In this document: positions 1-22,907 of the stretch, piece after piece | Layout of the letters: each line of letters opens with the position of its first letter | How positions within the stretch are numbered: the stretch's first letter is position 1 | Notes under the pieces: generated by a model | Seen by the model: the letters and a program-made list of their open reading frames with translations, nothing else | The model's database searches: none | Told to the model about the DNA's origin: nothing | Origin: Minisyncoccota bacterium | GTDB taxonomy: Bacteria > Patescibacteriota > Minisyncoccia > Phycocordibacterales > UBA9973 | Length of the DNA stretch: 64,000 nucleotides | Assembly: GCA_036405895.1 (NCBI GenBank) | Contig: DASWWS010000001.1 | Coordinates: forward strand, 244,468-308,467 | Direction: 5' to 3' | Position numbers and translations under genes: made by a program

Positions 1-2
1 TG

Positions 3-1862
3 GGGGCAGACAGCGAAAGCCATAATACTGCAACCGGACTTATCAATATCTTCAAGGAACGCACTCGTTTTTCTGACCCCTCTCTTGACCCGCGCCACCC
101 AAGAATTGTTGGGGTAGAAGTTCCGGTTGACCATCCCGACCAAGTTCATATCACATACGATATGCCTATTGCGCAAACGGTCGCAGGGTATGAGGTAGAA
201 GGATATACTATTACGGCAATTACTGTGGGTGGAAATGCGTCAACCTGGATTCTGCAGCTTGAAGAAACTGTTCTTTCAACCGACATGGTAACGCTTACGT
301 ACCGGATGCAAGAAGGGGATGCTGCCGCAGCCAGCGATGCAGAAAATCTTTTGTGTTCTTACATTGCCTATGCTGTAGTGAACAATTCTGAGGAAGTTGC
401 TCCTGAAGATCCAGAGCTCCGCATCTCGCTTAAAAACGGCAGTAACCAACAGCTCTACACGTGCGACACAATCACTGAGCTTGTGACGTACATGGGTACG
501 CTCAATATAAACTCCGACCTCTTTATTTATTTCAACGACAACGCTGCGCCACATATTATCGAAAGTCGCTGGAATATTTCCTACAGCAATCCTGAATATA
601 AAATAACAATCCGAAACAAAGCAGGCGTGGTTCATCCGTTGATTGACGGAGATGATGCAATTGCAGATTTGTTGCGCATCAGTCGAAGCAATGTACGCAT
701 CGAAGGGCTGAGCTTCAGAAGCGGAAAATACACCAATGATACGGGCTACTTGGGGGACAACTATTCAGGAAGCATTATTGCCCAAGTATCAAACACTGCT
801 GATACAGAATATGTAAATTTGAAATTCCATGAAGGAATGACAGGGCTTAAAATATCAGGACCAAACAGCACTGCGGATCAAAATATTTCAAACATTCTCG
901 TAGATACGATAGAATTCACCCACTTAACAGGAAACGCTCTTATTGTCGGCACGCAAAACCTTACTGCTGTTGATGAGCGAGGAGAAGAGGAATACACCAT
1001 GAGTGATGTTATTGTAAGAAACATCACGATATACGACGATACAGAGTCCGCTATTCTTGCTTCAGTGGAAGGAACAGACTATTACTTCGGCGGAACCATT
1101 GCCTCAAATGGTGTAAACGGCGTGACGTTTGAAAACATTACTGCTGAAAACCTAGGAACACAAGTGCTTTCCATAGGAGACTGTAAGACGGTACTGGTGA
1201 GAAACTGCACCTTTAAGCGCTTTTCACTTCGACAGTTCGGATACAATGGCGCGATTCGTCCAACATCGTGCGAGGGCATTACTATGTACAATATTTACTC
1301 CTTGGCCAACAGACCTCTCCTTCATGGCGACTACTGTCGAGACATTATATTGCAGCGCGTCTTCACCGCGCCGGTTGATGCGGGGGCAACTGCAGGAATC
1401 GGAATGAGTAACTGTCGAAGGTTTATTTCCCTCAAGGGAAATCTCGCAGTGGCGGGGCCAAATGAATGGGCGTGTGCAATTTCTTTCGATCGATCCAATG
1501 GTTATATTCCAACGCTTGCAGAAGATTTTCTTGAAGAAGAGGCGAACGTATGGATTACTCAGGATTTCAGAACACTCAATGTTGCGGGTATCGGAGAAGT
1601 TGCTGATGGTGACATGTTTGTGTACACCGATTATCACCACCCCTACTCTGACTTCCGCACTAATTATAATCGAGGACTTACTTCTACGGTGGGGTACTAT
1701 AACCAGCTGGTACTTGATTCCGAAGACGAGCGGTATCTTGCAGACGCATCTATCGGAAGAAACTTTGTTGCGTCTCAGGTTGGGTCGATTACCACAGATG
1801 CCGGAGGTGGCACGTTGACCTATCCGGCAGATGCGGGCGCCTACGACGCTGATGCTCTATAG
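3..1862 (+). CDS. Large secreted/surface protein, probable right-handed parallel beta-helix (pectin-lyase-like fold), 5' end outside window
   Basis: Open in frame from window edge to 1862 with no upstream stop; repetitive G/N/T/I-rich segments (NITIYDD, GLKISGPNS, VTFENITAENLG) typical of beta-helix repeats; >12 N-x-S/T sequons. Confidence 0.45.
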   Translation, partial: GADSESHNTATGLINIFKERTRFSDPSLDPRHPRIVGVEVPVDHPDQVHITYDMPIAQTVAGYEVEGYTITAITVGGNASTWILQLEETVLSTDMVTLTYRMQEGDAAAASDAENLLCSYIAYAVVNNSEEVAPEDPELRISLKNGSNQQLYTCDTITELVTYMGTLNINSDLFIYFNDNAAPHIIESRWNISYSNPEYKITIRNKAGVVHPLIDGDDAIADLLRISRSNVRIEGLSFRSGKYTNDTGYLGDNYSGSIIAQVSNTADTEYVNLKFHEGMTGLKISGPNSTADQNISNILVDTIEFTHLTGNALIVGTQNLTAVDERGEEEYTMSDVIVRNITIYDDTESAILASVEGTDYYFGGTIASNGVNGVTFENITAENLGTQVLSIGDCKTVLVRNCTFKRFSLRQFGYNGAIRPTSCEGITMYNIYSLANRPLLHGDYCRDIILQRVFTAPVDAGATAGIGMSNCRRFISLKGNLAVAGPNEWACAISFDRSNGYIPTLAEDFLEEEANVWITQDFRTLNVAGIGEVADGDMFVYTDYHHPYSDFRTNYNRGLTSTVGYYNQLVLDSEDERYLADASIGRNFVASQVGSITTDAGGGTLTYPADAGAYDADAL

Positions 1863-1920
1863 AGTTGTGGATAACAGTCGATATGCTCTGTAGGTATGGT
1901 AAAATAATAAACAAGAAATT

Positions 1921-2103
1921 ATGTTAGACAAAAAACTCACTAGAAAAGAATTTATTTTTTCCATCGGATCATTCATTGGTCTTTTGGCTGTCAGCGGCTT
2001 GCCTCAGGCGATTAGTGAAGACCTTGCAAAAAAAATGACTACTGATAAAAAGCCTGTCGCGAACGGGTATGGAAACCATCACTATGGGGGCAAGCGCGCG
2101 TAA
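1921..2103 (+). CDS. Small hypothetical protein with hydrophobic N-terminal segment
   Basis: 60-aa ORF, signal/TM-like FIFSIGSFIGLLAVSGLP; overlaps next gene start. Confidence 0.2.
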   Translation: MLDKKLTRKEFIFSIGSFIGLLAVSGLPQAISEDLAKKMTTDKKPVANGYGNHHYGGKRA

Positions 2104-2893
2104 CTTCATTTTTACTGTTTGCTTTCTGTTGACCGGCTTTTTTTTGTTTTCAAATACTGTAATTGCGGCACCGTACGGAGAAGGTTCGTACAATGAAGGA
2201 GATTTTGGAGAGGGAGAAGTTGTGGGAGGCGGCACTACTTCATCGGGGCCGGGTGTCTACGCGCCGCCAAGTGGTTGTACAAGCGGTGCGTCATTTAGTG
2301 TTACCACAGGAGAGCGCTGTTCGTACGTACCTCCTGCAACACCCCCTGGCATTCCGCCTGCTCAGTCGGCCGCCCCGCTATTTTTAGCTGACATCGCTCC
2401 GGGTACTACCAGTGAAGATGTCCGCACGCTTCAGCGTTATCTCAACATGCACGGCTTTCCCATTGCTCCAAGCGGACCAGGGTCTTTGAATAATGAAACG
2501 ATGTTTTTTGGCCCTGCAACCAAGGCTGCTGTAATACGCTTTCAAATAGCGAAAGGTCTTCTTCCTGCTACGGGCAATGTTGGACCCCTTACTCGTGCAG
2601 CAATTGCTCAAACGGCAGCGGCTGTACCCGCTGCAACCCCTTCTTTGAGCACTCCGAAGTTTGCGGTTGACTTGTCTCTTGGTGACGTCAGTGAAGATGT
2701 CCGCACGCTTCAGCGTTATCTCAATGCAAACGGCTTTACTATTGCTGCATCAGGACCCGGTTCTTCAGGAAAGGAGACCATTCTCTTCGGTCCCGCAACA
2801 AAAGCAGCCCTCATAAAGTTCCAAGTTGCTCATAACATTCTTCCTGCAACAGGCACCCTTGGTCCAAAAACTCGCGCATTTATTGCAAAATAA
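2069..2893 (+). CDS. Secreted protein with two peptidoglycan-binding (PG_binding_1-like) repeats
   Basis: N-terminal signal peptide; two copies of SEDVRTLQRYLN-x-GF-IA-SGPGS-x-FGPATKAA-FQ-x-LPATG-GP-TRA motif. Confidence 0.65.
   Translation: METITMGASARNFIFTVCFLLTGFFLFSNTVIAAPYGEGSYNEGDFGEGEVVGGGTTSSGPGVYAPPSGCTSGASFSVTTGERCSYVPPATPPGIPPAQSAAPLFLADIAPGTTSEDVRTLQRYLNMHGFPIAPSGPGSLNNETMFFGPATKAAVIRFQIAKGLLPATGNVGPLTRAAIAQTAAAVPAATPSLSTPKFAVDLSLGDVSEDVRTLQRYLNANGFTIAASGPGSSGKETILFGPATKAALIKFQVAHNILPATGTLGPKTRAFIAK
2411..2725 (+). repeat. Intragenic direct repeat (36-nt perfect copies at 2411 and 2691) reflecting domain duplication
   Basis: agtgaagatgtccgcacgcttcagcgttatctcaa occurs twice 280 nt apart. 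Confidence 0.8.
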
Positions 2894-2940
2894 CAAAATC
2901 AATTTACAATCCGTCAAGAGTAGGGTAGGATAGAGGAATT

Positions 2941-5092: not shown

Positions 5093-5539
5093 ATGAAAGT
5101 AATCCTTCTTAAAAACGTACCAAAGCTCGGAAAGAAAGATGATGTTGTCGAAGTAAACCAGGGCTATGCGGCAAATGCATTGTTTCCAAGCAAACTCGCA
5201 ATGCCGGCAACTGATGTCGCCATTGCCAACAGCAAGGCGCGCACTCAGCACAAGGTTGCAGAGAAGGAAATCCAGCACAACCTGCTCGACCGTGCCATTG
5301 GCGAACTGGAGGGCAAAGCGCTGGTATACAAGGCAAAGGCGAATGAAAAGGGGAGTCTCTTCTCAAAAGTCGATGTCGCCGATATCAGTGCCGAATTGTT
5401 GAAGCAGTACCGCATTGCGGTGGATGCAAAGCTTATGAAGCTCGAGGGCGCCCCTATCAAGCAAGCGGGAACGTACGTGGTCGAAGTAGTAGACGGAAAA
5501 TACAAGTCTTCATTTTCAGTTGATATAATAGGGGAGTAG
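5093..5539 (+). CDS. rplI: 50S ribosomal protein L9
   Basis: MKVILLKNVPKLGKKDDVVEV... classic L9 N-terminus; ORF-track start trimmed to internal ATG 5093. Confidence 0.85.
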   Translation: MKVILLKNVPKLGKKDDVVEVNQGYAANALFPSKLAMPATDVAIANSKARTQHKVAEKEIQHNLLDRAIGELEGKALVYKAKANEKGSLFSKVDVADISAELLKQYRIAVDAKLMKLEGAPIKQAGTYVVEVVDGKYKSSFSVDIIGE

Positions 5540-5540
5540 T

Positions 5541-6050
5541 ATGAAAAACCGCGGATTTACATTGATTGAACTTCTGGTTGTCATTGCAGTCATTGGCATT
5601 CTTGCTTCTGTGGTATTGGCAAGTTTGAATAGCGCTCGCGCAAAAGGACGCAACGCTCGCCGGGCAAGCGATGTAAAACAAATAATGCTTGCATTTCAAA
5701 TGGCAATCAATGATACAGGGACGGTTCCTTCTGTGGCCGCCGAGCACTGCATCAGCGCAACGTGCTATGAATCGTGGGCGAACTATGTCCGAAACAGCAC
5801 TGTTGATGCATGGCTCGCCCCGTATTTGCCAACATGGCCAAGCGACCCTGTTGGAGGGCGGGCTCGAGGAGGCTATCTGTATTTTCTTAATTTCCCCGGA
5901 GGCACTACGCCGTATGACGGCTCTCCCGCACCGGCCGGGCACATAATAAACTGGGCAACAGAGCCGCCATTATCAGCAACTTCATGCAGTGGGGGAAAAG
6001 TGTGGGCTGTGGAATCTAATTACGTAGAGTGTGTTTTATATATTAATTAA
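5541..6050 (+). CDS. Prepilin-type N-terminal cleavage/methylation domain protein (type IV pilin-like) 1
   Basis: MKNRGFTLIELLVVIAVIGILASVVLASLNSARAKGR: G|FTLIE class III signal; Cys pairs in C-terminal domain. Confidence 0.8.
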   Translation: MKNRGFTLIELLVVIAVIGILASVVLASLNSARAKGRNARRASDVKQIMLAFQMAINDTGTVPSVAAEHCISATCYESWANYVRNSTVDAWLAPYLPTWPSDPVGGRARGGYLYFLNFPGGTTPYDGSPAPAGHIINWATEPPLSATSCSGGKVWAVESNYVECVLYIN

Positions 6051-6518
6051 ATGAATTATAAGAGAGGCTTTACTTTAATAGAACTCCTTGTCGTCATTGC
6101 TGTCATTGGCATTCTTGCTTCTGTCGTTCTTGCGTCCCTCAACAGCGCACGAGCAAAAGCGCGCGATGCGCGCCGATTGGCGGACATCAACCAAGTAGCG
6201 ACAGCTCTTGAATTTTATTACGACAAGTACGGATACTATCCCGCATACGCAACAGTAGGGGGGCGCGATTGTTCGGGCTGGAACGGAATTCTTCCAAGCA
6301 GTGACACTTTCATGAAGCCTCTTGTTGATGAAGGATTTCTTGGTAAACCTTTGATGGACCCAAAGCCGGTAGATTGCGTCATGCAGTATCGCGACGAGAC
6401 AGCAGGGCAAGGGTACCGCCTTATTTTCCGCTACGAAACAAGGACCAACAATGACCTGACCTGTTATGCATTGGGCGGATGGAGCTGTATCAAGAAAAAT
6501 ACTACCGCTACCAACTAG
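6051..6518 (+). CDS. Type IV pilin-like protein 2 (paralog)
   Basis: MNYKRGFTLIELLVVIAVIGILASVVLASLNSARAKARD; C-terminal domain shared with pilin 3 (FMKPLVDEGFL, GQGYRLIF-YET, GGWSCI). Confidence 0.8.
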   Translation: MNYKRGFTLIELLVVIAVIGILASVVLASLNSARAKARDARRLADINQVATALEFYYDKYGYYPAYATVGGRDCSGWNGILPSSDTFMKPLVDEGFLGKPLMDPKPVDCVMQYRDETAGQGYRLIFRYETRTNNDLTCYALGGWSCIKKNTTATN

Positions 6519-6519
6519 T

Positions 6520-6993
6520 ATGAATAAGCAGCAGAAAGGATTCACTCTCATAGAGCTCCTGGTGGTGATTGCCGTTATCGGAATCCTTGCTTCTGTTGTT
6601 CTTGCTTCATTAAACAGTGCGCGTGCAAAAGCTCGCGATGCAAAGAAAATGGCAGACATGAAGTCAGTTTCTACCGCGCTTGAATTGTATTACGACAAAT
6701 ACGGCACATACCCCTTGTGGCAGCAAACTGCATGGGGAATAGACTGCGCCGGTTTTCGAGGGTCTTCAGCTGCGAGCAACACTTTCATGAAGCCGCTTGT
6801 TGATGAAGGATTCCTTTCTGTATACCCTAATGACACGAGAGGAAACTGTTTTATGCAGTATCGAGAAGAAAAGGCTGGGCAAGGGTACCGTTTGATCTTT
6901 CTTTATGAGACAAAGCCCAATAATGACCTTAAGTGCTATACGGACGGCGGATGGAGCTGTATTCGCGTAAACTTTGATGATGCAGTGGATTAA
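6520..6993 (+). CDS. Type IV pilin-like protein 3 (paralog)
   Basis: MNKQQKGFTLIELLVVIAVIGILASVVLASLNSARAKARD; start trimmed from ORF-track 6466 to the ATG preceding pilin N-terminus. Confidence 0.8.
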   Translation: MNKQQKGFTLIELLVVIAVIGILASVVLASLNSARAKARDAKKMADMKSVSTALELYYDKYGTYPLWQQTAWGIDCAGFRGSSAASNTFMKPLVDEGFLSVYPNDTRGNCFMQYREEKAGQGYRLIFLYETKPNNDLKCYTDGGWSCIRVNFDDAVD

Positions 6994-7310: not shown

Positions 7311-7378
7311 AGTGGGTACATGATAGCCTGAGGGGGAAGAAATGTCAATCCTTCTTCTATAGGATATACTATGAAATA

Positions 7379-7756
7379 GTGAGCAATTTCCTGATTCGGC
7401 ACTATCGCACCCTTTTTACCATACTTCTCATTGCCATGCTTCTTTTGGCCTTTTTAATGGGCTTTTTGACGGGGAAACAGCAACAATCTCCGGCGGTAGT
7501 GCTTTCGTGCAGTCCAGACGTGCTCTCCGAGCTCACCATACCGGTTGCGCGACTCTCTCAGAATGCTATAACAGGGGATAGTAACGAAATTGTAAACAAG
7601 CCGACAAGCGGCGCATTTGTCGGATCGAAAAACGGCACTAAGTACTATCCTCCGAATTGCTCCGGGGTCAGCCGCATCAAGCCCGAAAACTATATTTGGT
7701 TTAAGGACGCGGCAGACGCAGAACTGCAAGGGTATACGCGAATATCATCATGTTAA
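7379..7756 (+). CDS. Membrane-anchored protein with C-terminal Ada-type metal-binding-like domain
   Basis: N-terminal TM; C-terminal KYYPPNC-x8-ENYIWF-x5[12 protein letters not shown] resembles Ada_Zn_binding pattern YH-x3-C...N...F...A...GYR-C. Confidence 0.35.
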
Positions 7757-8700
7757 GATCCATCCTTTCAGTATGCATTATGGGACTCACGGGCTTGCTC
7801 ATGCTTGCCATTCTTTTGCCGACACAAACCAGAGAAATGGCGGAGAATATTCTCTCAGGCGCCAACACCTTCTCATCGTATCTTCCTGTTCTTGATTCCG
7901 ACACTAAAAAAGAGGAGGAGATAAATGACCCCATTACAGAGAAAAAGCCGCTCGACACGATAGAGAGCGCAGTAAAGACCGTTATTGATGCTGTCTCTCC
8001 ATCAAAAGAGAGCGCTCCAAAAAGCGACAACACTCTGACAAACGCAAATATTGTCGACGCAACAAATGCCGAGCGCATTAAGCTTGGCCTCACCCCGCTT
8101 TCAACAAATGCAAAGCTTACCGCTTCGGCAAAAATAAAAACCGAGGACATGATAAAGAACGGATACTTCGAGCACGTTTCTCCGGACGGCGTGGCAGTTT
8201 CCGACCTCGGCACGCAGGTAGGGTATGACTACGTCATCATGGGCGAGAACCTTGCTTTAGGGAACTTCTCCGGAGCCGACGACCTTTTGCAGGCATGGAT
8301 GAACTCTCCCGGACATCGAGCGAATATTGTCAGCGAGAGCTATATGGAAATCGGCATCTATGCGGCACAAGGGCAGTATCAGGGCCGAAAGGTATGGTTT
8401 GCAGTGCAGCACTTTGGCACAGCCCGCGGCGCATGCCCGGTAGTGGACCAACAGCTTAAAGACGATATCGATGACTTCAATACGGCACTTCGTGCAAAGG
8501 AAAAGAAAATCACGGTCCTTCGTGCAGAGCTCGAAGGTATGGAGCAAAACGACAATGAGTATCAAGAGAAGGTTGCTATATTCAACGCCCTTGTTGCCGA
8601 GTACAATTCACAGCTCGCCATGTCCCAAGCCGCCATTGCACGGTACAACAAGCAAGTTGTCGCATTCAATAAATGTCTCGCACAGTATCAGGGGGAATAA
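7750..8700 (+). CDS. Membrane-anchored CAP/SCP (PR-1-like, YkwD-type) domain protein with C-terminal coiled coil
   Basis: N-terminal TM; CAP motifs GYFEHVSPDG, GENLALGNFSGADDLLQAWMNSPGHRANI, YMEIGI; heptad-rich tail. Confidence 0.65.
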   Translation: MLRSILSVCIMGLTGLLMLAILLPTQTREMAENILSGANTFSSYLPVLDSDTKKEEEINDPITEKKPLDTIESAVKTVIDAVSPSKESAPKSDNTLTNANIVDATNAERIKLGLTPLSTNAKLTASAKIKTEDMIKNGYFEHVSPDGVAVSDLGTQVGYDYVIMGENLALGNFSGADDLLQAWMNSPGHRANIVSESYMEIGIYAAQGQYQGRKVWFAVQHFGTARGACPVVDQQLKDDIDDFNTALRAKEKKITVLRAELEGMEQNDNEYQEKVAIFNALVAEYNSQLAMSQAAIARYNKQVVAFNKCLAQYQGE

Positions 8701-8725
8701 TTTAAAAATAGTAGGGAAGTAGGAA

Positions 8726-8757
8726 AGGGGTATTGGGCAGATACCTCTTTTCTTTTA
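8726..8757 (+). terminator. Probable intrinsic terminator after CAP-domain gene
   Basis: AGGGGTAT-loop-ATACCTCT imperfect hairpin followed by T-rich run. Confidence 0.4.
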
Positions 8758-9289
8758 TCCAATTCAACTTTCAACTAAACCACTCTCTCGATTTGTTCTA
8801 CGGGACTCGAATTAATTATCTAATTGTTGTGCTAATTATTTGGGTAATTCAAACCCTTTGTTGTTCGAGATATTCTATCCCGGGGGAATAGGGCTTTATT
8901 ATAAAGGTTAAAAATATGTAACGTCGTACAATATATCTTTTACGACATATACAGAGGGCAAATAGTCTTTATCCATAAAGCCTGTGCTTCTTGAGCTTAG
9001 GTCTGGCTCTTATGTATCTCCTCTTAATTACATCAACAAATGAGACTTGGGTCAGATTCATAATTTAGTTCACGTTTTTGATTTTTTTACAATAAAAATA
9101 ATTATCTCAATTAAGAAATGGATTACACCTTCCTAAGGAAGGTGCTGAGGTGAAGATGTTGGATATATCAGTCATTAAAAGTGTAAGACTCACTTCCCTG
9201 TTTTTATCAAAATTTCGAGGCCCTAGAATCGATTTTAAGGTGCCTTGGATTTTGAACATGAGTAAAGTCTTCGGCTATTTTATTAACTT

Positions 9290-9328
9290 AATAAAATAAA
9301 AAGAGTCTCTTTAAAAAAGAGACTCTCA
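9290..9328 (-). terminator. Intrinsic terminator downstream of 9335..9682
   Basis: AGAGTCTC-ttaaaaaa-GAGACTCT hairpin with flanking A/T runs. Confidence 0.55.
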
Positions 9329-9334
9329 TGATAA

Positions 9335-9682
9335 TCAGTTTGTGAATTTTTCAAGTGTTTGAAGAAATTGTTCAGTAATTTGATACTGTCCAGAATCATT
9401 CTTAGTAAGGTATCCAGACTTTAGTACTACAGTAGTACGCGGGACTGGTTTGCCTCCGTTTACAAGCGCTTCTAATACTCCGAGTTCGCTCTCGGTGACT
9501 AAGTGCCGGCAGAGAGATTTATAATCTTCCCATGTAAACGGAGTCCAAGCATCTTCATTGAGCTTCTGTTGAATAAAAATAATATTTTCAGAAATAGTCT
9601 CTGCTTCACTGCTGCGTAAAGCGCTTCCAACAAAGTCTCTTTTTCGAAAGCTTGCCGGGGTTATCTTTGTTATAAGGTTCAT
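9335..9682 (-). CDS. Hypothetical protein (low-GC patch)
   Basis: 115-aa ORF followed by terminator; no motif recognised. Confidence 0.35.
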   Translation of the reverse strand: MNLITKITPASFRKRDFVGSALRSSEAETISENIIFIQQKLNEDAWTPFTWEDYKSLCRHLVTESELGVLEALVNGGKPVPRTTVVLKSGYLTKNDSGQYQITEQFLQTLEKFTN

Positions 9683-9765
9683 TTTTTATATTTATTTTCC
9701 TTTACTCTACCCTATTTCTTGACAAAGTCAAGGATAATGGTAATGTAAAATAAAAAATAAGCGCT

Positions 9766-10152
9766 ATGGAGTATAGAAAAGGGTCTATGTGCAAGACTGA
9801 TCGGATTGAACACTTTATTGCTGTTCTCAATGAAGAAAAGCATTCCTGCAGCAATATGTATCAAGCATATGAGCACCTGGTTGAAAGGTTTCAGGAGATT
9901 GAACAGAAGTATTGCCCTGCAATGGAGGGCCGCATGCACTTTGGTGACTTTGAGAACTTTCTTTTTGTGAAGGAGTATTCGGTATATATGTGGGTTGCAG
10001 TGAGCCATGTCGTATTCATTCATGTGCATGGAGCGTATGGGGTGTATGAGAGAAACGACATATCCATTTTTCACAATAGAAATGTTCACACCTACAAAAA
10101 AGAAACTCCCCTTGTGTGTGTTGAAAACAGCTTAGGATACCCCTTGTGGTAA
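9766..10152 (+). CDS. Hypothetical Cys/His-rich protein (low-GC patch)
   Basis: 128-aa ORF with TTGACA-like -35 upstream; preferred over overlapping antisense 9712..10089 which is hydrophobic junk-like. Confidence 0.3.
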   Translation: MEYRKGSMCKTDRIEHFIAVLNEEKHSCSNMYQAYEHLVERFQEIEQKYCPAMEGRMHFGDFENFLFVKEYSVYMWVAVSHVVFIHVHGAYGVYERNDISIFHNRNVHTYKKETPLVCVENSLGYPLW

Positions 10153-10201
10153 TGCAACAGCCTTCAGGAAACTGGGGGTTTTTATTTGGTATACTATACG
10201 T

Positions 10202-10453
10202 ATGATCCCTCCTGAAAACAGAGTATTACTGATCAAAAACCTCAAAGCCGGGTGGAATATCCGCCATGCGTGCGACCGTTCGCATATCAGCCGCTCGAGC
10301 TTGTATCAATACTATAAAAAAGACCCGGAGTTTAAGGCATTGGTACAAAAAACAATGCATACGTTTCTTGAGCGCAAAGAGAAAAAGGAAAAGCTCTCCG
10401 CCCGCCACGCCCTGATGAAAGACAAGCAAGCCGTGCGCAACCGCTTTAAATAA
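10202..10453 (+). CDS. Small helix-turn-helix protein (transposase-OrfA / terminase-small-subunit-like HTH)
   Basis: 83 aa; GWNIRHACDRSHISRSSLYQYYKK resembles HTH_ of IS-type OrfA/resolvase. Confidence 0.35.
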   Translation: MIPPENRVLLIKNLKAGWNIRHACDRSHISRSSLYQYYKKDPEFKALVQKTMHTFLERKEKKEKLSARHALMKDKQAVRNRFK

Positions 10454-10742
10454 TTGACACTTTCCTCTAGCGAGCTACTATAATAGATGAAGCAATAACA
10501 TACGAAAGGATGGATAGTTCAATCAAGCAAGGCACCCCTATCGACATAGGCGCCAAAGCACTTGTTAGTTCCTTGGAATAGGCCAAGGGGAAACCAAAAG
10601 ATGTTCCATAGATAGTATGTACAATTATAATGGCCATGCCCACGCAATGAGTAAAGGTGCCTATCCTATAGTGTTCGCTGTATACCGCTCCTGCATCTGC
10701 GAAATACGCCATTGCGGTCATTACCCTCTCAACATTTAAAAG

Positions 10743-10766
10743 CCTCCATTAGTGGAGGCTTTTTTG
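10743..10766 (+). terminator. Orphan plus-strand intrinsic terminator ~290 nt after nearest plus-strand ORF
   Basis: GCCTCCA-ttag-TGGAGGC hairpin + TTTTTT. Confidence 0.5.
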
Positions 10767-10832
10767 AATCCCTAACGCATTGACATTGCAGGGCTTTCAG
10801 ATAAAGTAGAGAAAACTTAAACTCTTAGCACC

Positions 10833-11327
10833 ATGCCAATAAAAGGAATAGTGAGCGCCATTGCTCCGGAACAACGAATTGAGAATCTGTCCTTAGGGGA
10901 AGAAGCCTATCTCGATGCATTCAGCCTTACTGTTACAGAAAGAGCGATATTTATCGATAGAGCCGCATTTGTAATACTGAAGAAGCATCTTGATGAGAAT
11001 GAAGAAAATCTTTTTGATGACCACATTTTAGTAAAACGAATCGGAAAAGGGCTGACCGAGCACGACTTCGAGCTCGACATGACCGTTATTCCGGAGTATG
11101 ACTTTACTCTCGATGACAGCGCTACATATGTTGACCTTATGAGGCACAAAGACAATCATATTATCTTCTATGACTTTGAGCTTGAGAAATTGACTAACTT
11201 TCGCAGTAAAGAAACGGAACCTGCCGAAGAAAACCTTGAAGAACAATTAAGGGAAGCGGTAGAAAAGCAAGATTTCGAAAAGGCCACTATTCTTCGGGAG
11301 AAAATAAAAAACAACAGTAAAAAATAA
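10833..11327 (+). CDS. Hypothetical protein with C-terminal UVR (UvrB/UvrC-type) motif
   Basis: C-terminus LEEQLREAVEKQDFEKATILREKI matches UVR domain consensus. Confidence 0.45.
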   Translation: MPIKGIVSAIAPEQRIENLSLGEEAYLDAFSLTVTERAIFIDRAAFVILKKHLDENEENLFDDHILVKRIGKGLTEHDFELDMTVIPEYDFTLDDSATYVDLMRHKDNHIIFYDFELEKLTNFRSKETEPAEENLEEQLREAVEKQDFEKATILREKIKNNSKK

Positions 11328-11334
11328 CTAAAAA

Positions 11335-11358
11335 CCTGGCATACGTCCAGGTTTTTTA
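11335..11358 (+). terminator. Intrinsic terminator
   Basis: CCTGG-catacgt-CCAGG + TTTTTT. Confidence 0.55.
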
Positions 11359-11370
11359 TATACTGGGCGT

Positions 11371-11883
11371 ATGAAGAAGCTACCCCTCTCATTTTTTGCC
11401 CGCCCCGCCCTTATTGTCGCAAAAGAGCTGATTGGCACGTATATCACCCTTCGTTCAGGTGGAAAAATTGAGCGCTATAAAATCACAGAAACCGAAGCGT
11501 ATGTTGGACCGCACGATCTTGCCTCACACTCTTCTAAGGGGCGCACCAAGCGCACAGAGGTCATGTATGCGGCTCCCAGCACTATATACATCTATCTTAT
11601 CTACGGCATGTACTACATGCTCAATATCGTCACTGACGAAAAGGACTATCCCGCTGCCGTGCTTATCCGAGGAATCGAAGAAATAAATGGACCTGGAAAA
11701 CTGACAAAACAATTAGGGATTGATAAGCGGCTTAATGGAATAATGCTTGGCGCAAAAAGCGGCATATGGATTGAAAAGGACGAGTCTGCTCCCCTTCCTA
11801 AAATAATAAAAACTCCTCGCATTGGAGTGAATTATGCTGGACCCATTTGGGCCGAGAAAAAATACCGCTTCTTAGCGAAATAG
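11371..11883 (+). CDS. mpg: DNA-3-methyladenine glycosylase (MPG/AAG family)
   Basis: FF-RPALIVAKELIG-x-L...ITETEAYVGPHDLASHSSKGRT-RTEVMY...YIYLIYGMYYMLN family signature. Confidence 0.8.
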   Translation: MKKLPLSFFARPALIVAKELIGTYITLRSGGKIERYKITETEAYVGPHDLASHSSKGRTKRTEVMYAAPSTIYIYLIYGMYYMLNIVTDEKDYPAAVLIRGIEEINGPGKLTKQLGIDKRLNGIMLGAKSGIWIEKDESAPLPKIIKTPRIGVNYAGPIWAEKKYRFLAK

Positions 11884-12331: not shown

Positions 12332-12807
12332 TATGCTATTTCTATTCGCTCTATTGTAATCGCTTCAACGGGCCGGTCGGCTGCATTGGTGGGCGCCATC
12401 TCAATTGCGGTGACGACATCCATCCCTTCGGTTACTTTTCCAAATACCGTGTGCTTTTCATTGAGGAAAATATTGTCGTTGCAGTTGATGAAAAACTGGC
12501 TGCCATTGGTGTTGGGTCCTGAGTTTGCCATAGAGATTGTTCCTTCGAGGTTGTTGTTCGCACCAGTAATTTCGTCGGCAAACTTGTAGCCCGGGTCCCC
12601 GGTCCCCCATAGTGGCATCTTGGTATCGTCTTTGGTCAACGGGTCGCCTCCCTGAATCATAAATCCGCTGATGACGCGATGGAACTTGGTGCTGTTGTAA
12701 AATCCTTCTCCCGCGAGCTTAGTAAAGTTTGCGACTGTGTTTGGTGTTTGGGTGTCGAACAATTCAATTACAATGGTTCCTTTTGATGTATATACTGTTG
12801 CTTTCAT
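12331..12807 (-). CDS. ppiB: Peptidyl-prolyl cis-trans isomerase, cyclophilin type
   Basis: FHRVISGFMIQGGDP, GTGDPGYKFADE, FFINCNDN cyclophilin motifs. Confidence 0.85.
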   Translation of the reverse strand: MKATVYTSKGTIVIELFDTQTPNTVANFTKLAGEGFYNSTKFHRVISGFMIQGGDPLTKDDTKMPLWGTGDPGYKFADEITGANNNLEGTISMANSGPNTNGSQFFINCNDNIFLNEKHTVFGKVTEGMDVVTAIEMAPTNAADRPVEAITIERIEIA

Positions 12808-12821
12808 ATACAGAGTATACC

Positions 12822-19715: not shown

Positions 19716-20279
19716 TTAGTATTTTCGCATCACTCCGCGGACGATTGCCACAATCTCAAGGCTCTCTGTCGGATAGATGTTTTTAAATGCCTTGTTGGCT
19801 GGTTCGAGCCATACTTTCTCGCCTTTCTGTTTAAAATATTTCATAGTGAACTCGCCATCGACATTTGCAATCACAATGTCGCCGTCTTTTGCGCGGTTCG
19901 TACGCTCGGCTATTACCATGTCTCCGTCTGCAATGTGCGCCTCAATCATAGAGTCTCCGTCCACTTCCAACAAATAGGTGCTCTCGCGCTTGCGCACCAT
20001 GTAGTCTTCGATATTGAGCGTGTCGGTGAGCATCTCGCCGGGTGCCGGCAAGCCCGCTTTCACTAAGCCCGCCATCGGAAGTTCGTCAAAGCTTGCACTT
20101 GGAATAAGGTGCCCGAGCTTGTCTTTCATTACTATCCCCGCTGCGATCATTTTTGTTACAACGCGCGATACTGCATTTTTGGATTTAAAGCCAAAGAGCG
20201 CCATCATTTCCGTATAAGACGGCATGCGGCGTTTATTTTGATAGAACTGTATTACTTTGGCTTGGTAGTCTCCTTCCAT
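19716..20279 (-). CDS. lexA: LexA repressor (S24 peptidase)
   Basis: N-terminal wHTH aligned to LexA; VDGDSMIEAHIADGDMV (Ser) and ...FTMKYF (Lys) catalytic dyad context; start placed at MEGDYQ (alt. ORF-track start 20306). Confidence 0.85.
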   Translation of the reverse strand: MEGDYQAKVIQFYQNKRRMPSYTEMMALFGFKSKNAVSRVVTKMIAAGIVMKDKLGHLIPSASFDELPMAGLVKAGLPAPGEMLTDTLNIEDYMVRKRESTYLLEVDGDSMIEAHIADGDMVIAERTNRAKDGDIVIANVDGEFTMKYFKQKGEKVWLEPANKAFKNIYPTESLEIVAIVRGVMRKY

Positions 20280-20280
20280 A

Positions 20281-20481
20281 CTAGTAGTTTCCGAAAACGC
20301 GAGCAAGGATTCCTTTGCGTGCTCGTGCTCTCATCGCTATACGTCTCATTGTATAACTATTGGATAGCGTAGGAAAGCCAGCAAGTACTGTGTGGGGTGC
20401 AACACGCGGTGCGCTGACTACGCTTCGCAGGCGCTCTATCTCTGAACTCACGAGCTGTTTGAATGGAGTGATTGTTCTCAT
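20281..20481 (-). CDS. Small basic hypothetical protein immediately upstream of lexA
   Basis: 66-aa ORF abutting lexA start; Arg-rich; coding status uncertain. Confidence 0.2.
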   Translation of the reverse strand: MRTITPFKQLVSSEIERLRSVVSAPRVAPHTVLAGFPTLSNSYTMRRIAMRARARKGILARVFGNY

Positions 20482-21088: not shown

Positions 21089-21405
21089 AAGAATATATGT
21101 GAATTAAGTTCTTATAATATGGAGCCCTTTAATAACCTGACGAGTCAGAATGCATAAGGGTTACACTGGTTCATATTATGCCATATTTTCATATAAAAAG
21201 CAATTAATAGCGAGTTAAATTAATTATGAAGGCGTTTTATTCTCGTCAGCTCACCTATTTTGAATATGACTCTTTATAGTTAGTTTTGGAACCGTCCATT
21301 TAAAGAATTACATAGTTGGAAAAACTCTAGCTTTAATTAATTCAATTACTGAGCAATAAATTGTTTCACATTTTTTATTTAAGAATAGTTTTAAAAGATG
21401 GATAA

Positions 21406-22263
21406 TTATTTTCTATATCGATTTAACAAGTATAAAATTTTATTTAATTCAAGCCAAAGATATACATATTCCTTTTCGGTGAAAATTTTAGGTTGCCCCT
21501 CTTGTTCGTGATGAATATTTTTAATTACATAATCAACAAGATTTTCAAATTCTGTATTGTTTCCATCAAATAATATATTCGATAATTCTCTTTTATTGTG
21601 CAGTCTCGGAAAAGTACCATCTCCTTTTTTATAATTATTTTGTAAAGTATTTTCAACTACTTTTTTGAGGTTACCTAGAGATTCATTGTAAAATAGTTTA
21701 TTATTTTTAGTTTTCTCTTTCTTATATAATAGAAAATCTGATACACATTTTTCATATCGTATTTTGTTATCTCCTCCTAGATCATCTCTATTAGAATTAA
21801 CAAGCTCAATACTTGCTTTATCAAGTTTTCTTTTAAACACGTGAGCTTTTTTGTCATAATAAAAATCAATATTGAAGACACTTGAATTTTCAGATTCTAT
21901 TACTAAATCAGTTAATTTAATAACCATAGTCTTCAAGTTGCTTCGTAAATCAAAAGGTACTTGATCGAAATTCCAAACTTCTTTTTTAAGATAAAGTATT
22001 ATATTAGGTAGTAGTTCATTAAAAAATGATAAAAAAATATCTTGTTCTCCACTTAGATACCCTTTCTTTAAATAATCCATTATGGTATGACCACTTCTTC
22101 TTTCGGGGCTATATCTATACTGTGAATTAATATCATCTGTAAGAAGATATGGTAATACTTCAGTTCTTTCGGCACTATCAAGCAGTTCACACGTAACCTC
22201 AAAAAAATTTTGATAGCCGTGTGCAAATTGCTCTAAATTGAGTTTTGGAAATTTATCATCCAT
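21406..22263 (-). CDS. Hypothetical protein, AT-rich island gene B (285 aa)
   Basis: Long clean ORF in ~30% GC DNA; K/N/Y/F-rich; no family motif recognised. Confidence 0.5.
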   Translation of the reverse strand: MDDKFPKLNLEQFAHGYQNFFEVTCELLDSAERTEVLPYLLTDDINSQYRYSPERRSGHTIMDYLKKGYLSGEQDIFLSFFNELLPNIILYLKKEVWNFDQVPFDLRSNLKTMVIKLTDLVIESENSSVFNIDFYYDKKAHVFKRKLDKASIELVNSNRDDLGGDNKIRYEKCVSDFLLYKKEKTKNNKLFYNESLGNLKKVVENTLQNNYKKGDGTFPRLHNKRELSNILFDGNNTEFENLVDYVIKNIHHEQEGQPKIFTEKEYVYLWLELNKILYLLNRYRK

Positions 22264-22297
22264 ACAGATATTTTAGCAAAAGTGATAAATTACACCT

Positions 22298-22771
22298 CTA
22301 TTGATCTTGTTGGTAAACCCACTCATTTAGAATATTTGCGATATTTTCTATTTCTTTTTGAACCCACAATATACAAGCTTCTTTAATATTTGAACAATTC
22401 AATGTCCTCATGGAGTTTGATATTTCTTTTTCGGTTTCATCTGTGAGATACCATAGAGGATTATAGATATTCACCTCGATGATTTTCTCAACAATCTTTT
22501 CTTGGATAAACTTTTTATCTGCTTCATACCCATAATATTCATATAAATTAAACACTAATTGAGCTGCGTGTGCCCATAAATCCTTACTTTGCTCACCACG
22601 AAGCCCAAGAATCATCTCGAGTTCATTTCCAGGAGTAGTCTCTATTTTGTGTGTTTTGAAAAGTTTTATAAGACTTCCCGATGGATTTTTAAATAAGGTA
22701 TAACCTTCTTTACTATTCTGATATGCATCTCTGAATTGGTTAATCCTATTTGTTTTATCTAGTGTAGACAT
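22298..22771 (-). CDS. Hypothetical protein, AT-rich island gene A (157 aa)
   Basis: Clean ORF 34 nt upstream of gene B, same strand; TGtTATAAT-like -10 about 8 nt before ATG. Confidence 0.5.
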   Translation of the reverse strand: MSTLDKTNRINQFRDAYQNSKEGYTLFKNPSGSLIKLFKTHKIETTPGNELEMILGLRGEQSKDLWAHAAQLVFNLYEYYGYEADKKFIQEKIVEKIIEVNIYNPLWYLTDETEKEISNSMRTLNCSNIKEACILWVQKEIENIANILNEWVYQQDQ

Positions 22772-22907
22772 GATTCATATTATAACACAAACTTGATATT
22801 AAAATAGATGAAATATCTATCTCTTTTAAAAACAAAAAGAGGGTTTTACAGGAAAAAGCATTGAAAGAGCGTGCGCACATGTATCAATTTTTGTCAGCAT
22901 ATTAGGA

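Follow-up and report, generated by a model that had tools for sequence, protein, structure and literature searches.

A probable multi-slot accessory-gene hotspot without mobile-element genes in an uncultured Paceibacteria/Nomurabacteria group

We analysed a 64-kb stretch of DNA (64,000 nucleotides, the window) and found that its interval at 8.7-11.4 kb is probably an accessory-gene hotspot, or plasticity zone, with several slots, of which the window carries one allele and which is shared by a genus-level, uncultured Paceibacteria/Nomurabacteria group. The best reading of the locus is a hotspot poor in mobile elements, with recombination at conserved elements as the probable cause of its turnover. 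Because CPR bacteria have very small genomes and hardly any genetics, little is known of how they acquire and regulate strain-specific genes. The locus is a compact, well-delimited case of gene turnover without mobile-element genes, and it offers several handles: a small, conserved HTH protein and a candidate operator for it, a reusable promoter, a candidate sRNA without an Rfam match, and an unnamed family of about 165 aa whose N-terminal domain lacks a structural neighbour in the PDB. Should the hotspot prove ordinary, the value of the analysis would be mainly corrective, in that a gene described as transposase-like belongs to the core and one annotated ORF is no gene.

Related loci (L097, L098, L100 and L101) were found by an exact look-up of the L27 protein, and the comparison covers four lineages, the window being one of them and three lying beyond it. 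The left flank, consisting of L27, orf125 and a CAP-domain gene, and the right flank, consisting of DUF1360/PPIase/Pterin-4a, are syntenic and 80-100% identical in all four related loci, all of which have an L27 protein identical to that of the window; another estimate for the flanks is 80-94%. The CAP gene (7750-8700, + strand; Pfam CAP, 4e-16) closes the left conserved flank and is 80-91% identical at the amino acid level. Between these common flanks, the genes A115, B128 and E164 occur in the window strain only and are missing from every related locus, and the relatives hold at least ten other genes. In relatives, the A115 slot is occupied by a 149-aa gene, which L097 and L100 share at 82% identity. 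Their remaining cargo comprises genes of 213, 168, 190, 76 and 96 aa, a Doc-like toxin with a 54-aa partner, a nucleoside-deoxyribosyltransferase-like gene, and UbiA, amino-oxidase and SQS_PSY genes. Further genes lie between the CAP stop codon and the terminator behind it in L097, L098 and L100. The variation is distributed across at least five separate junctions, and the units replaced are whole transcription units. The preliminary description had proposed a hotspot for small accessory genes and a presence/absence comparison of the segment; the comparison bears the proposal out, and the segment is not universally conserved, because gene content differs in relatives that share the flanks.

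The same description had placed the patch between two conserved genes, which holds for CAP but fails for mpg. The latter gene (11359-11883, + strand, with TATACT 6 nt upstream of its ATG) encodes a 3-methyladenine DNA glycosylase (Pfam Pur_DNA_glyco, 1e-48), and its best matches come from Ca. Nomurabacteria; at NCBI, the proteins carry the name Ca. Paceibacterota. It is deleted in L097 and L101 and missing at the corresponding place in L098. In L097, its promoter and about 10 codons remain, and here, unlike for most of the changes, the comparison clearly points to a loss. In a scan of GTDB representatives with mpg, the nearest relatives were only 57-72% identical and lacked synteny.

Many hotspots of horizontal gene transfer are devoid of mobile elements, with recombination evident at the flanks (Oliveira, Touchon, Cury & Rocha 2017; PMC5635113). 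Like these, the present locus is an interval between core genes whose content varies in close relatives and which holds no recognisable mobile-element genes, and its cargo is of the strain-specific or conflict type, including the Doc-like toxin, the nucleoside-deoxyribosyltransferase-like gene and a winged-helix protein from a family associated with phages. In contrast to those hotspots, the interval is divided into several slots by a conserved gene and conserved non-coding blocks within it, and one promoter is reused before different cargo genes. Furthermore, the host is a small-genome CPR bacterium, and the one indirect hint of recombination at the flanks is a set of unitig breaks at Ppal and S3, two elements described below.

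The spacer downstream of CAP (8701-9334) is, as first described, free of sizeable ORFs (longest at most 52 aa) and has a strong hairpin at either end, namely the CAP terminator (8721-8753) and the A115 terminator (9301-9327). Its G+C content of 0.31-0.38 lies below the window mean of about 0.46; the low G+C originally noted for the whole patch extends over 8.7-10.0 kb, whereas 10.2-10.8 kb lies at the genome average. Comparison of the loci shows that parts of this "ORF-free" spacer are more strongly conserved than coding DNA. Block S1 (8702-8765, + strand) is the CAP terminator, a 14-bp hairpin followed by a T-run (-20.7 kcal/mol, z -3.9), and is kept in four lineages. Blocks S2 (8811-8850) and S3 (8880-8968, including the hairpin GTCGTA-N12-TACGAC at 8923-8946) are 85% and 92% identical to L100, whereas the spacers between blocks are 17-39% identical and the coding flanks about 80%. 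The 56-nt block S4 (9191-9246) is present in single copy, matches L097 and L101 at 55 of 56 positions and L100 at 93%, and stands in surroundings that cannot be aligned among the lineages. S3 at 92% and S4 at 93-98% thus compare with 80-87% for coding DNA. Of the hairpins proposed near 9125-9146, one good hairpin exists rather than two: the perfect 8-bp stem CACCTTCC-TAA-GGAAGGTG at 9126-9144 (-12 kcal/mol, z -2.75), which 2 of 200 shuffled sequences match in folding and which is lineage-specific, being unconserved in L100. A 30-aa ORF at 8969-9061 (- strand) keeps its frame, start and stop in L100, but its amino acid identity of about 70% falls below the nucleotide identity of 81%; the 213-aa gene replaces it in L097, and we regard it as a doubtful gene. 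For the att site or ncRNA suggested for the spacer, neither an att site nor a known RNA was found in it, with no Rfam family reaching gathering in 8701-9334, although conserved non-coding blocks are present; the strongest ncRNA candidate lies outside the spacer, beneath the fourth ORF of the patch.

A further conserved element is the promoter Ppal (9704-9733, - strand; TTGACT-16-TAGAGT, from a promoter scan), which carries the palindrome CTTGACAAAGTCAAG over its -35 hexamer; the + strand of this palindrome supplies TTGACA. Four genes in three lineages, belonging to three unrelated kinds, have exactly this core of about 30 nt upstream, and homology between lineages ends immediately past the -10. 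Ppal is present once in the window. Contigs or unitigs of two samples in Logan break exactly at the 30-mer 9704-9733, and another Logan unitig breaks at the S3 hairpin.

C83, an 83-aa HTH protein (unit 10187-10453, ORF 10202-10453, + strand), lies next to Ppal and divergent from it in L097 and L100. The preliminary description had counted this gene among the accessory cargo. This is contradicted by its 90-93% amino acid identity, at 82% nucleotide identity, in all four lineages, which makes it the best-conserved gene of the locus and, on comparative evidence, a core gene rather than an accessory one. Conservation upstream of C83 begins at 10179. Its mRNA is probably leaderless, because the extended -10 TGGTATACT (10187-10195) lies 6 nt before the ATG. 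We consider C83 most likely a DNA-binding regulator, and the palindrome CTTGAC-N3-GTCAAG over the Ppal -35 would be a plausible candidate operator for it. However, conservation of C83 cannot depend on Ppal or on the sRNA candidate downstream, because L098 retains C83 without either.

All five ORFs initially listed for the patch are open, but one of them, D84 (84 aa, 10467-10721, - strand), is no gene. The region that it overlaps, 10454-10770 on the + strand, is more likely to encode a previously undescribed candidate sRNA of about 280 nt than a protein. It consists of a promoter (10454-10481), a 5' domain (10498-10620), a 3' domain (10629-10722) and a terminator (10738-10769), as delimited by alignment and folding, and lies directly 3' of C83 in two of the four lineages. 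To our knowledge, few non-coding RNAs have been described in this group. Like bacterial trans-acting or 3'-UTR-derived sRNAs, the candidate, as read from the sequence, has its own sigma-70-type promoter, ends in a Rho-independent terminator, lacks coding capacity and contains a putative conserved structured domain; in contrast to them, it is long, has no Rfam match and is known from two lineages only. Among 4227 Rfam families, none matched anywhere in the 64 kb at gathering level, and at E<=10 the matches were terminator look-alikes only. A metagenome scan with two anchors from the sRNA gave 45 matches, all of them chance by nhmmer and blastn.

An unlikely alternative is that 10454-10770 is a decaying protein gene, either D84 or a small + strand ORF, or the plain long 3' UTR of C83. 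D84 is an open frame annotated by one gene caller, the whole-region fold reaches a z-score of just -1.2, and read-through from C83 is expected because no terminator separates the two. However, 1-nt indels disrupt every frame of the region in comparison with L097, three of them within D84, and the 23-aa + strand ORF shows mostly non-synonymous changes and an unconserved stop codon in the same alignment. The promoter (TTGACA-16-TACTAT) keeps both hexamers invariant between two lineages across a spacer identical at 9 of 16 positions, and the terminator stem is retained through three G-U-type changes. The 5' domain folds into an identical 35-pair minimum-free-energy structure in both lineages, with all six changed pairs kept and none broken (P<=0.0006), and these changes, two compensatory and four G-U, fit the + strand only. 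The consensus structure includes 67 pairs that are 100% paired, with four compensatory changes; a domain of about 130 nt in the region carries compensatory changes. The 3' domain is unsupported, since single-sequence folds break 7-11 of its pairs in the other lineage. An origin as 3' UTR would not argue against a functional RNA, and the candidate sRNA may be transcribed separately from the + strand or processed from the 3' UTR of C83. As a weak lead to a target, positions 10504-10515 are complementary over 12 nt to CAP codons 3-7; a crude scan for duplexes places CAP only fifth of 72, and the complementarity is unconserved in L097, where it has two mismatches.

Within the hotspot reading, a fixed frame would be formed by CAP with its terminator S1, the blocks S2, S3 and S4, Ppal, C83 and DUF1360/PPIase. 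Whole transcription units would be gained, lost or replaced between these points, the slots of the window strain being filled by A115, B128 and E164. Homologous recombination with DNA of co-occurring relatives or phages would be the most likely route; the conserved blocks and core flanks could serve as homology, and such exchange would need no dedicated recombinase. No integrase or recombinase was matched by Pfam, PHROG or NCBIfam among the ORFs at 8.7-11.9 kb, and the gene calls of the 17-kb contig L001 include none; no transposase, structural or lysis gene was present at the locus, and PADLOC detected no defence system. The flanking direct repeats or att sites that had been suggested as worth seeking came down to chance-level repeats of at most 16 nt, terminal inverted repeats were absent, and no tRNA or tmRNA occurred in the 64 kb.

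It is improbable that exchange is instead site-specific, in the manner of an integron, acting at the S3 hairpin, S4 and Ppal with a recombinase encoded elsewhere or with C83 as an accessory DNA-binding factor. Homology between lineages does break at, within or next to the S3 hairpin, S4 reaches 98% identity between lineages whose genes differ by 13%, and whole transcription units are replaced. Moreover, in L098 a partial and a full copy of the S3 hairpin enclose one gene, a duplication that hints at a site-directed process. However, this is the one duplicated junction seen, gene calls on the compared loci around this region include no tyrosine or serine recombinase and no HUH gene, and the elements also act as ordinary promoters and terminators, which would be kept by selection in any case. 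The locus resembles integron arrays in its small, mostly one-gene units swapped at a fixed chromosomal place, with hairpins at some junctions. In contrast to integrons, it has no IntI integrase, no attI or attC core sites (inspection of the S3 hairpin revealed nothing resembling an attC core) and no single Pc promoter, and its units possess their own 5' UTR and terminator and lie in both orientations. We give a similarly low probability to a bolder reading, in which Ppal, the S3 hairpin and S4 would be portable elements that mark swap points for recombinase-free exchange of whole transcription units among co-occurring Paceibacteria strains and their phages, and C83 and the sRNA would bind or control these points and regulate the arriving cargo.

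A mobile or phage-derived remnant was another early suggestion, and it finds weak support in A115, a strain-specific winged-helix protein (9335-9682, - strand) with a terminator of a 12-bp stem and T-run (9301-9327, - strand, z -4.3). The sole relatives of A115 lie on viral or phage-like contigs: homologues are found on an IMG/VR contig that also encodes an integrase, an O-like initiator and a Holliday-junction resolvase, and in phage-like arrays of small genes. Among the contigs with A115 homologues, clear phage hallmark genes are present in L092 only. The phage nature of L085, L088 and L091 rests on gene organisation, because a PHROG scan of the genes beside their A115 homologues gave almost nothing, and a fold search of A115 against BFVD returned no significant match. 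Together with the low G+C at 8.7-10 kb and the resemblance of C83 to small-terminase HTH domains (phrog_4044, 1e-5, covering positions 31-83 of 180, that is, the HTH part only), the relatives of A115 could be taken to indicate the decayed remnant of a single prophage or integrative element between CAP and mpg. We find this highly improbable. Integrase, recombinase, structural and lysis genes, att-like direct repeats and a tRNA are all absent, the changes fall at five or more junctions instead of a single insertion, and the low-GC spacer is itself kept in relatives; conservation of C83 and S1-S4 in relatives largely refutes it. GenBank phages gave no tblastn match to A115, B128 or C83. Scans of viral contigs returned no relatives of B128 or C83, no Ppal, S4 or sRNA block, and matches to E164 through its UVR motif only; one E164 family member that we checked lies in an ordinary chromosomal context.

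The early likening of C83 to IS OrfA or terminase HTH proteins found matches, all of them weak. Residues 6-60 weakly match the N-terminal HTH of phage small terminases and IS630/IS3-type OrfA (HTH_23/HTH_28; phrog_4044) and carry the motif SRSSLYQYYKKDPEF, which is typical of such domains. Unlike those proteins, C83 has 83 aa, no oligomerisation or transposase domain, no large-terminase, packaging or DDE neighbour, and is a conserved single-copy chromosomal gene. A C83 profile gave nothing below E=0.05 against PDB sequences, and a search of JGI metagenomes with its alignment found nothing. A reading of C83 as the OrfA left by a decayed insertion sequence, with the patch as its debris, is refuted for practical purposes: the matches to HTH_23 (2e-4, below gathering), IS3/IS481 N-terminal HTH (about 1e-3) and HTH_Tnp_1_2 (0.011) are far below curated cut-offs, no DDE ORF or terminal inverted repeat exists, and C83 is single-copy and syntenic and shows strong purifying selection across four lineages.

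B128 (9766-10152, + strand, terminator 10159-10180) is an orphan ORF without family matches, which retrieved itself only among 5.8 billion proteins; its codon score is weak (0.07) and about equal to that of its antisense frame. E164 has a complete transcription unit on the + strand (10780-11356: promoter 10780-10807, ORF 10833-11327, terminator 11330-11356) and is absent from the corresponding place in relatives. The UVR motif first noticed in this 164-aa protein is sound, scoring 28.0 bits against a Pfam gathering threshold of 21.5 (PF02151, residues 134-160). Like UvrB, at its C-terminus, UvrC and McsA, E164 thus carries a C-terminal helical hairpin of the UVR type. In contrast to these proteins, it lacks the helicase, the GIY-YIG or RNase H-like nuclease and the McsA zinc-finger parts, and its NCBIfam scores are limited to the motif (13-15 bits, with cut-offs of 210-750). 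E164 is a member of a conserved family of about 165 aa, for which an exhaustive HMMER search recovered 90 full-length relatives (E<1e-3). In the AF2 model (pLDDT 91.8), the N-terminal domain of about 120 residues is beta-rich and has no structural neighbour in the PDB, and it defines a separate, unnamed family.

As an observation on the wider neighbourhood, the locus adjoins genes for type IV pilins, which are thought to serve DNA uptake.

The interval between the CAP gene (7750-8700) and mpg (11359-11883) is a hotspot for small accessory genes, as the preliminary description had proposed, since related lineages carry other genes in these positions. The same description also offered a mobile-element remnant, a reading that proved mostly unsupported; overall, it was confirmed in part. 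A scan of species-representative genomes with mpg returned at most 72% identity and no synteny, and was therefore uninformative for presence or absence. Relatives were instead found by exact-sequence look-up of ribosomal protein L27, which gave contigs of other lineages in which L27 is identical and its surroundings are the same: L097 and L101, which represent a single lineage, as well as L098 (GCA_049317285.1) and L100 (GCA_020049755.1). Their flanking genes are 80-94% identical to those of the window in amino acids and 80-87% in nucleotides. The arrangement in the window is not an assembly artefact, because nine independent Logan contigs (runs SRR11449177-88, from the source site) are 100% identical to it across the locus.

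Three genes of the window, A115 (9335-9682, minus strand), B128 (9766-10152, plus strand) and E164 (10833-11327, plus strand), are absent from L097, L098, L100 and L101. L097 carries genes of 190, 76 and 96 aa that separate the stop codon of CAP from its terminator, together with genes of 213, 149 and 168 aa, and L100 carries a 53-aa ORF and a 149-aa gene. The 149-aa gene is orthologous between L097 and L100 (82% identity) and occupies exactly the slot that A115 holds in the window. In L098 the gap between CAP stop codon and terminator holds (at 5429-6026) a 54-aa gene and a Doc-like toxin of 146 aa (phrog_577 at 2e-9; Fic in Pfam at 6.5e-4), probably a toxin-antitoxin pair; a nucleoside-2-deoxyribosyltransferase-like gene is also present. 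We further observed that L098 (1014-4217) encodes UbiA, a 501-aa amino-oxidase (phytoene-desaturase-like) and SQS_PSY 3' of C83, between it and the PPIase gene, and that UbiA also adjoins C83 in L100; a CPR genome would not be expected to contain genes of carotenoid type. The mpg gene is missing in the relatives too. At L097 2330-2400 its promoter (TATACT) and about ten codons (MKKLPHSFF) are kept and fused to the end of the DUF1360 gene, which is four codons longer there, leaving a clean deletion scar. This remnant indicates that mpg is ancestral and was deleted in L097. The mpg protein has its closest matches in Candidatus Nomurabacteria and Paceibacterota MAGs.

This pattern fits the HGT hotspots without mobile elements in which genes turn over between conserved neighbours (PMC5635113), and the locus additionally has internal fixed points: the HTH gene C83, the non-coding blocks S1-S4 and the palindromic promoter Ppal. 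C83 (10202-10453, plus strand) had been counted among the accessory cargo, a view overturned by its presence in all four lineages at 90-93% identity. Such conservation at about 82% nucleotide identity indicates purifying selection, as for the core flanks. All Pfam HTH matches of this 83-aa protein are sub-threshold; it matches a small-terminase HTH family in PHROGs at 1e-5 and IS3/IS481 N-termini in NCBIfam at about 1e-3. Three features lead us to infer that C83 is a regulator: the HTH, the conservation of the gene and its placement, divergent from the palindromic promoter beside it. Counting against this role, L098 keeps C83 without Ppal.

The spacer 8701-9334 is indeed free of ORFs and AT-rich (longest ORF at most 52 aa; GC 0.31-0.38 versus about 0.46 for the window). 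As described, it is bounded by terminator hairpins, that of CAP at its start (8721-8753; 14-bp hairpin and T-run, -20.7 kcal/mol, z -3.9) and that of A115 at its end (9301-9327; 12 bp). A further hairpin noted within it (9126-9144) is real, but of modest strength and not conserved. Four blocks are shared with relatives: S1 (8702-8765) is the CAP terminator, S2 (8811-8850), which contains CTAATT repeats, is 85% identical to L100, S3 (8880-8968) is 92% identical, and S4 (9191-9246) shares 93% identity with L100 and 55/56 positions with L097, between lineages whose genes diverge by 13-20%. The DNA separating the blocks is 17-39% identical. Conservation of S3 and S4 exceeds that of coding DNA, which argues that they are functional; in the 56 nt of S4 we found no ORF, fold or second copy to account for it. 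Neither Rfam families at gathering score nor meaningful flanking repeats, both of which the preliminary description had suggested looking for, were found.

Ppal (9704-9732, minus strand, TTGACT-16-TAGAGT) drives A115, and the palindrome CTTGACAAAGTCAAG spans its -35. Its core of about 30 nt recurs without change 5' of four genes that fall into three unrelated kinds: A115, the 149-aa orthologues in L097 and L100, and the 168-aa gene of L097. The surrounding homology ends just past the -10, implying that the exchanged unit comprises 5' UTR, ORF and terminator. One copy lies directly divergent from C83 in both L097 and L100; the window has a single copy, and the viral contigs scanned have none. 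Logan unitigs of two samples break at the 30-mer 9704-9733 (L104 stops at 9733; L004 and L003 begin at 9704 and 9706), and another unitig stops at the S3 hairpin (8951). These breaks point to more than one continuation per sample in the k=31 de Bruijn graph. Judged from sequence comparison, homologous recombination at C83, S1-S4 and Ppal would be the simplest mechanism of turnover. In L098, the deoxyribosyltransferase-like gene is flanked by one partial and one complete copy of the S3 hairpin, a bracketing that hints at a more specific process.

The cargo genes differ in their relationships. A115 has seven homologues of 38-55% identity with a common, strongly conserved core (WTPFTWEDYK...GGKPV). 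One lies on IMG/VR contig UViG_3300027786_000016 near an O-like replication initiator, a Holliday-junction resolvase and an integrase, with PHROG families on both sides. The remaining homologues sit within long same-strand arrays of small genes without Pfam hits, on contigs where PHROGs recognise almost nothing and which we infer to be phages. On that IMG/VR contig (L092, 5411-6795), an integrase gene abuts tRNA-Pro(TGG) and the A115 homologue lies across the tRNA gene from it, but PHROG families are present to either side. A search of 5.8 billion proteins gave no relative of B128, which has a weak codon score (0.07, about equal to its antisense frame); its promoter and terminator suggest that it may be a genuine strain-specific gene. 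E164 ends in the UVR motif previously reported, which scores 28 bits in Pfam against a gathering score of 21.5. A word-indexed search returned no relatives of E164; an exhaustive HMMER search returned 90, 60 of them below 1e-10, mostly of 150-190 aa and aligned over nearly the full length. One relative has an ordinary chromosomal context, adjoining TerC and RsmE. The AF2 model of E164 is confident (pLDDT 91.8).

All five ORFs lie at the positions originally given, and one of them, the 84-aa minus-strand ORF D84 (10467-10721), did not survive as a gene: three 1-nt and two longer indels relative to L097 disrupt it and all other frames. The overlying plus-strand region 10454-10770 probably encodes an RNA, classed here as a candidate sRNA or as a processed 3' UTR of C83, as judged from two lineages only. 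A promoter (10454-10481, TTGACA-16-TACTAT) lies immediately 3' of the C83 stop codon, with both hexamers invariant in L097 and the spacer 9/16 identical; a strong terminator (10738-10769) follows about 280 nt further downstream, and three one-sided changes of G-U type leave its stem intact. Identity to L097 is about 85% across the 5' half, and independent folding of the two sequences gave the same 35-pair structure for the 5' domain (10498-10620), with z-scores of -3.0 and -2.1. All six changed pairs there remain paired (two compensatory, four G-U type) and none is broken, compared with 4.5-6.7 broken pairs under permuted substitutions (P<=0.0006). RNAalifold places 67 pairs in the consensus, all of them (100%) formed in each sequence; there are four compensatory changes, including one in a long-range helix (CGCAATG/CATTGCG to CGTAATG/CATTACG). 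The G-U changes are compatible with the plus strand only; the 3' domain is unsupported apart from the consensus-helix changes. The candidate matches no Rfam family, has no homologue in the viral or JGI scans and is absent from L098 and L100, and is possibly a new RNA family of narrow known distribution. Within its most conserved stretch (GAAAGGAUGGAU), 12 nt (10504-10515) show perfect complementarity to codons 3-7 of the CAP mRNA (7758-7769); two positions are mismatched in L097, and in a crude scan for duplexes CAP came only 5th of 72.

Additional variation was observed outside the locus. Three tandem type IV pilin genes occupy 5541-6993, compared with two in L097, and identity of the third falls to 71-83% in relatives despite identical L27; these neighbours of the hotspot are fast-evolving as well. 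A tRNA-Ile(GAT) gene lies between TP_methylase and RF-1 in L097 (12016-12090), L098 (12579-12653) and L100 (8163-8237) and is missing from window 1-2900; the 64-kb window contains no tRNA gene. Several same-strain contigs stop at 2695, which, with the tRNA difference, suggests that synteny breaks or a junction varies at this point. A stronger low-GC patch (21400-22800, GC 0.28-0.33) carries two genes on the minus strand, one of 285 aa (21406-22263) and one of 157 aa (22298-22771), beside a 196-aa ORF (19716-20306) that looks LexA-like by eye. Finally, TATACT, which occurs only 38 times on the two strands of the window taken together, lies 5-8 nt 5' of the start codon in 7 of the 72 putative genes, C83, mpg and the PPIase gene among them (sites at 7365-7381, 10190-10204, 11359-11373, 12805-12819 and others), and an SD-like motif precedes only 10 genes; on these motif counts, the organism probably makes common use of leaderless mRNAs.
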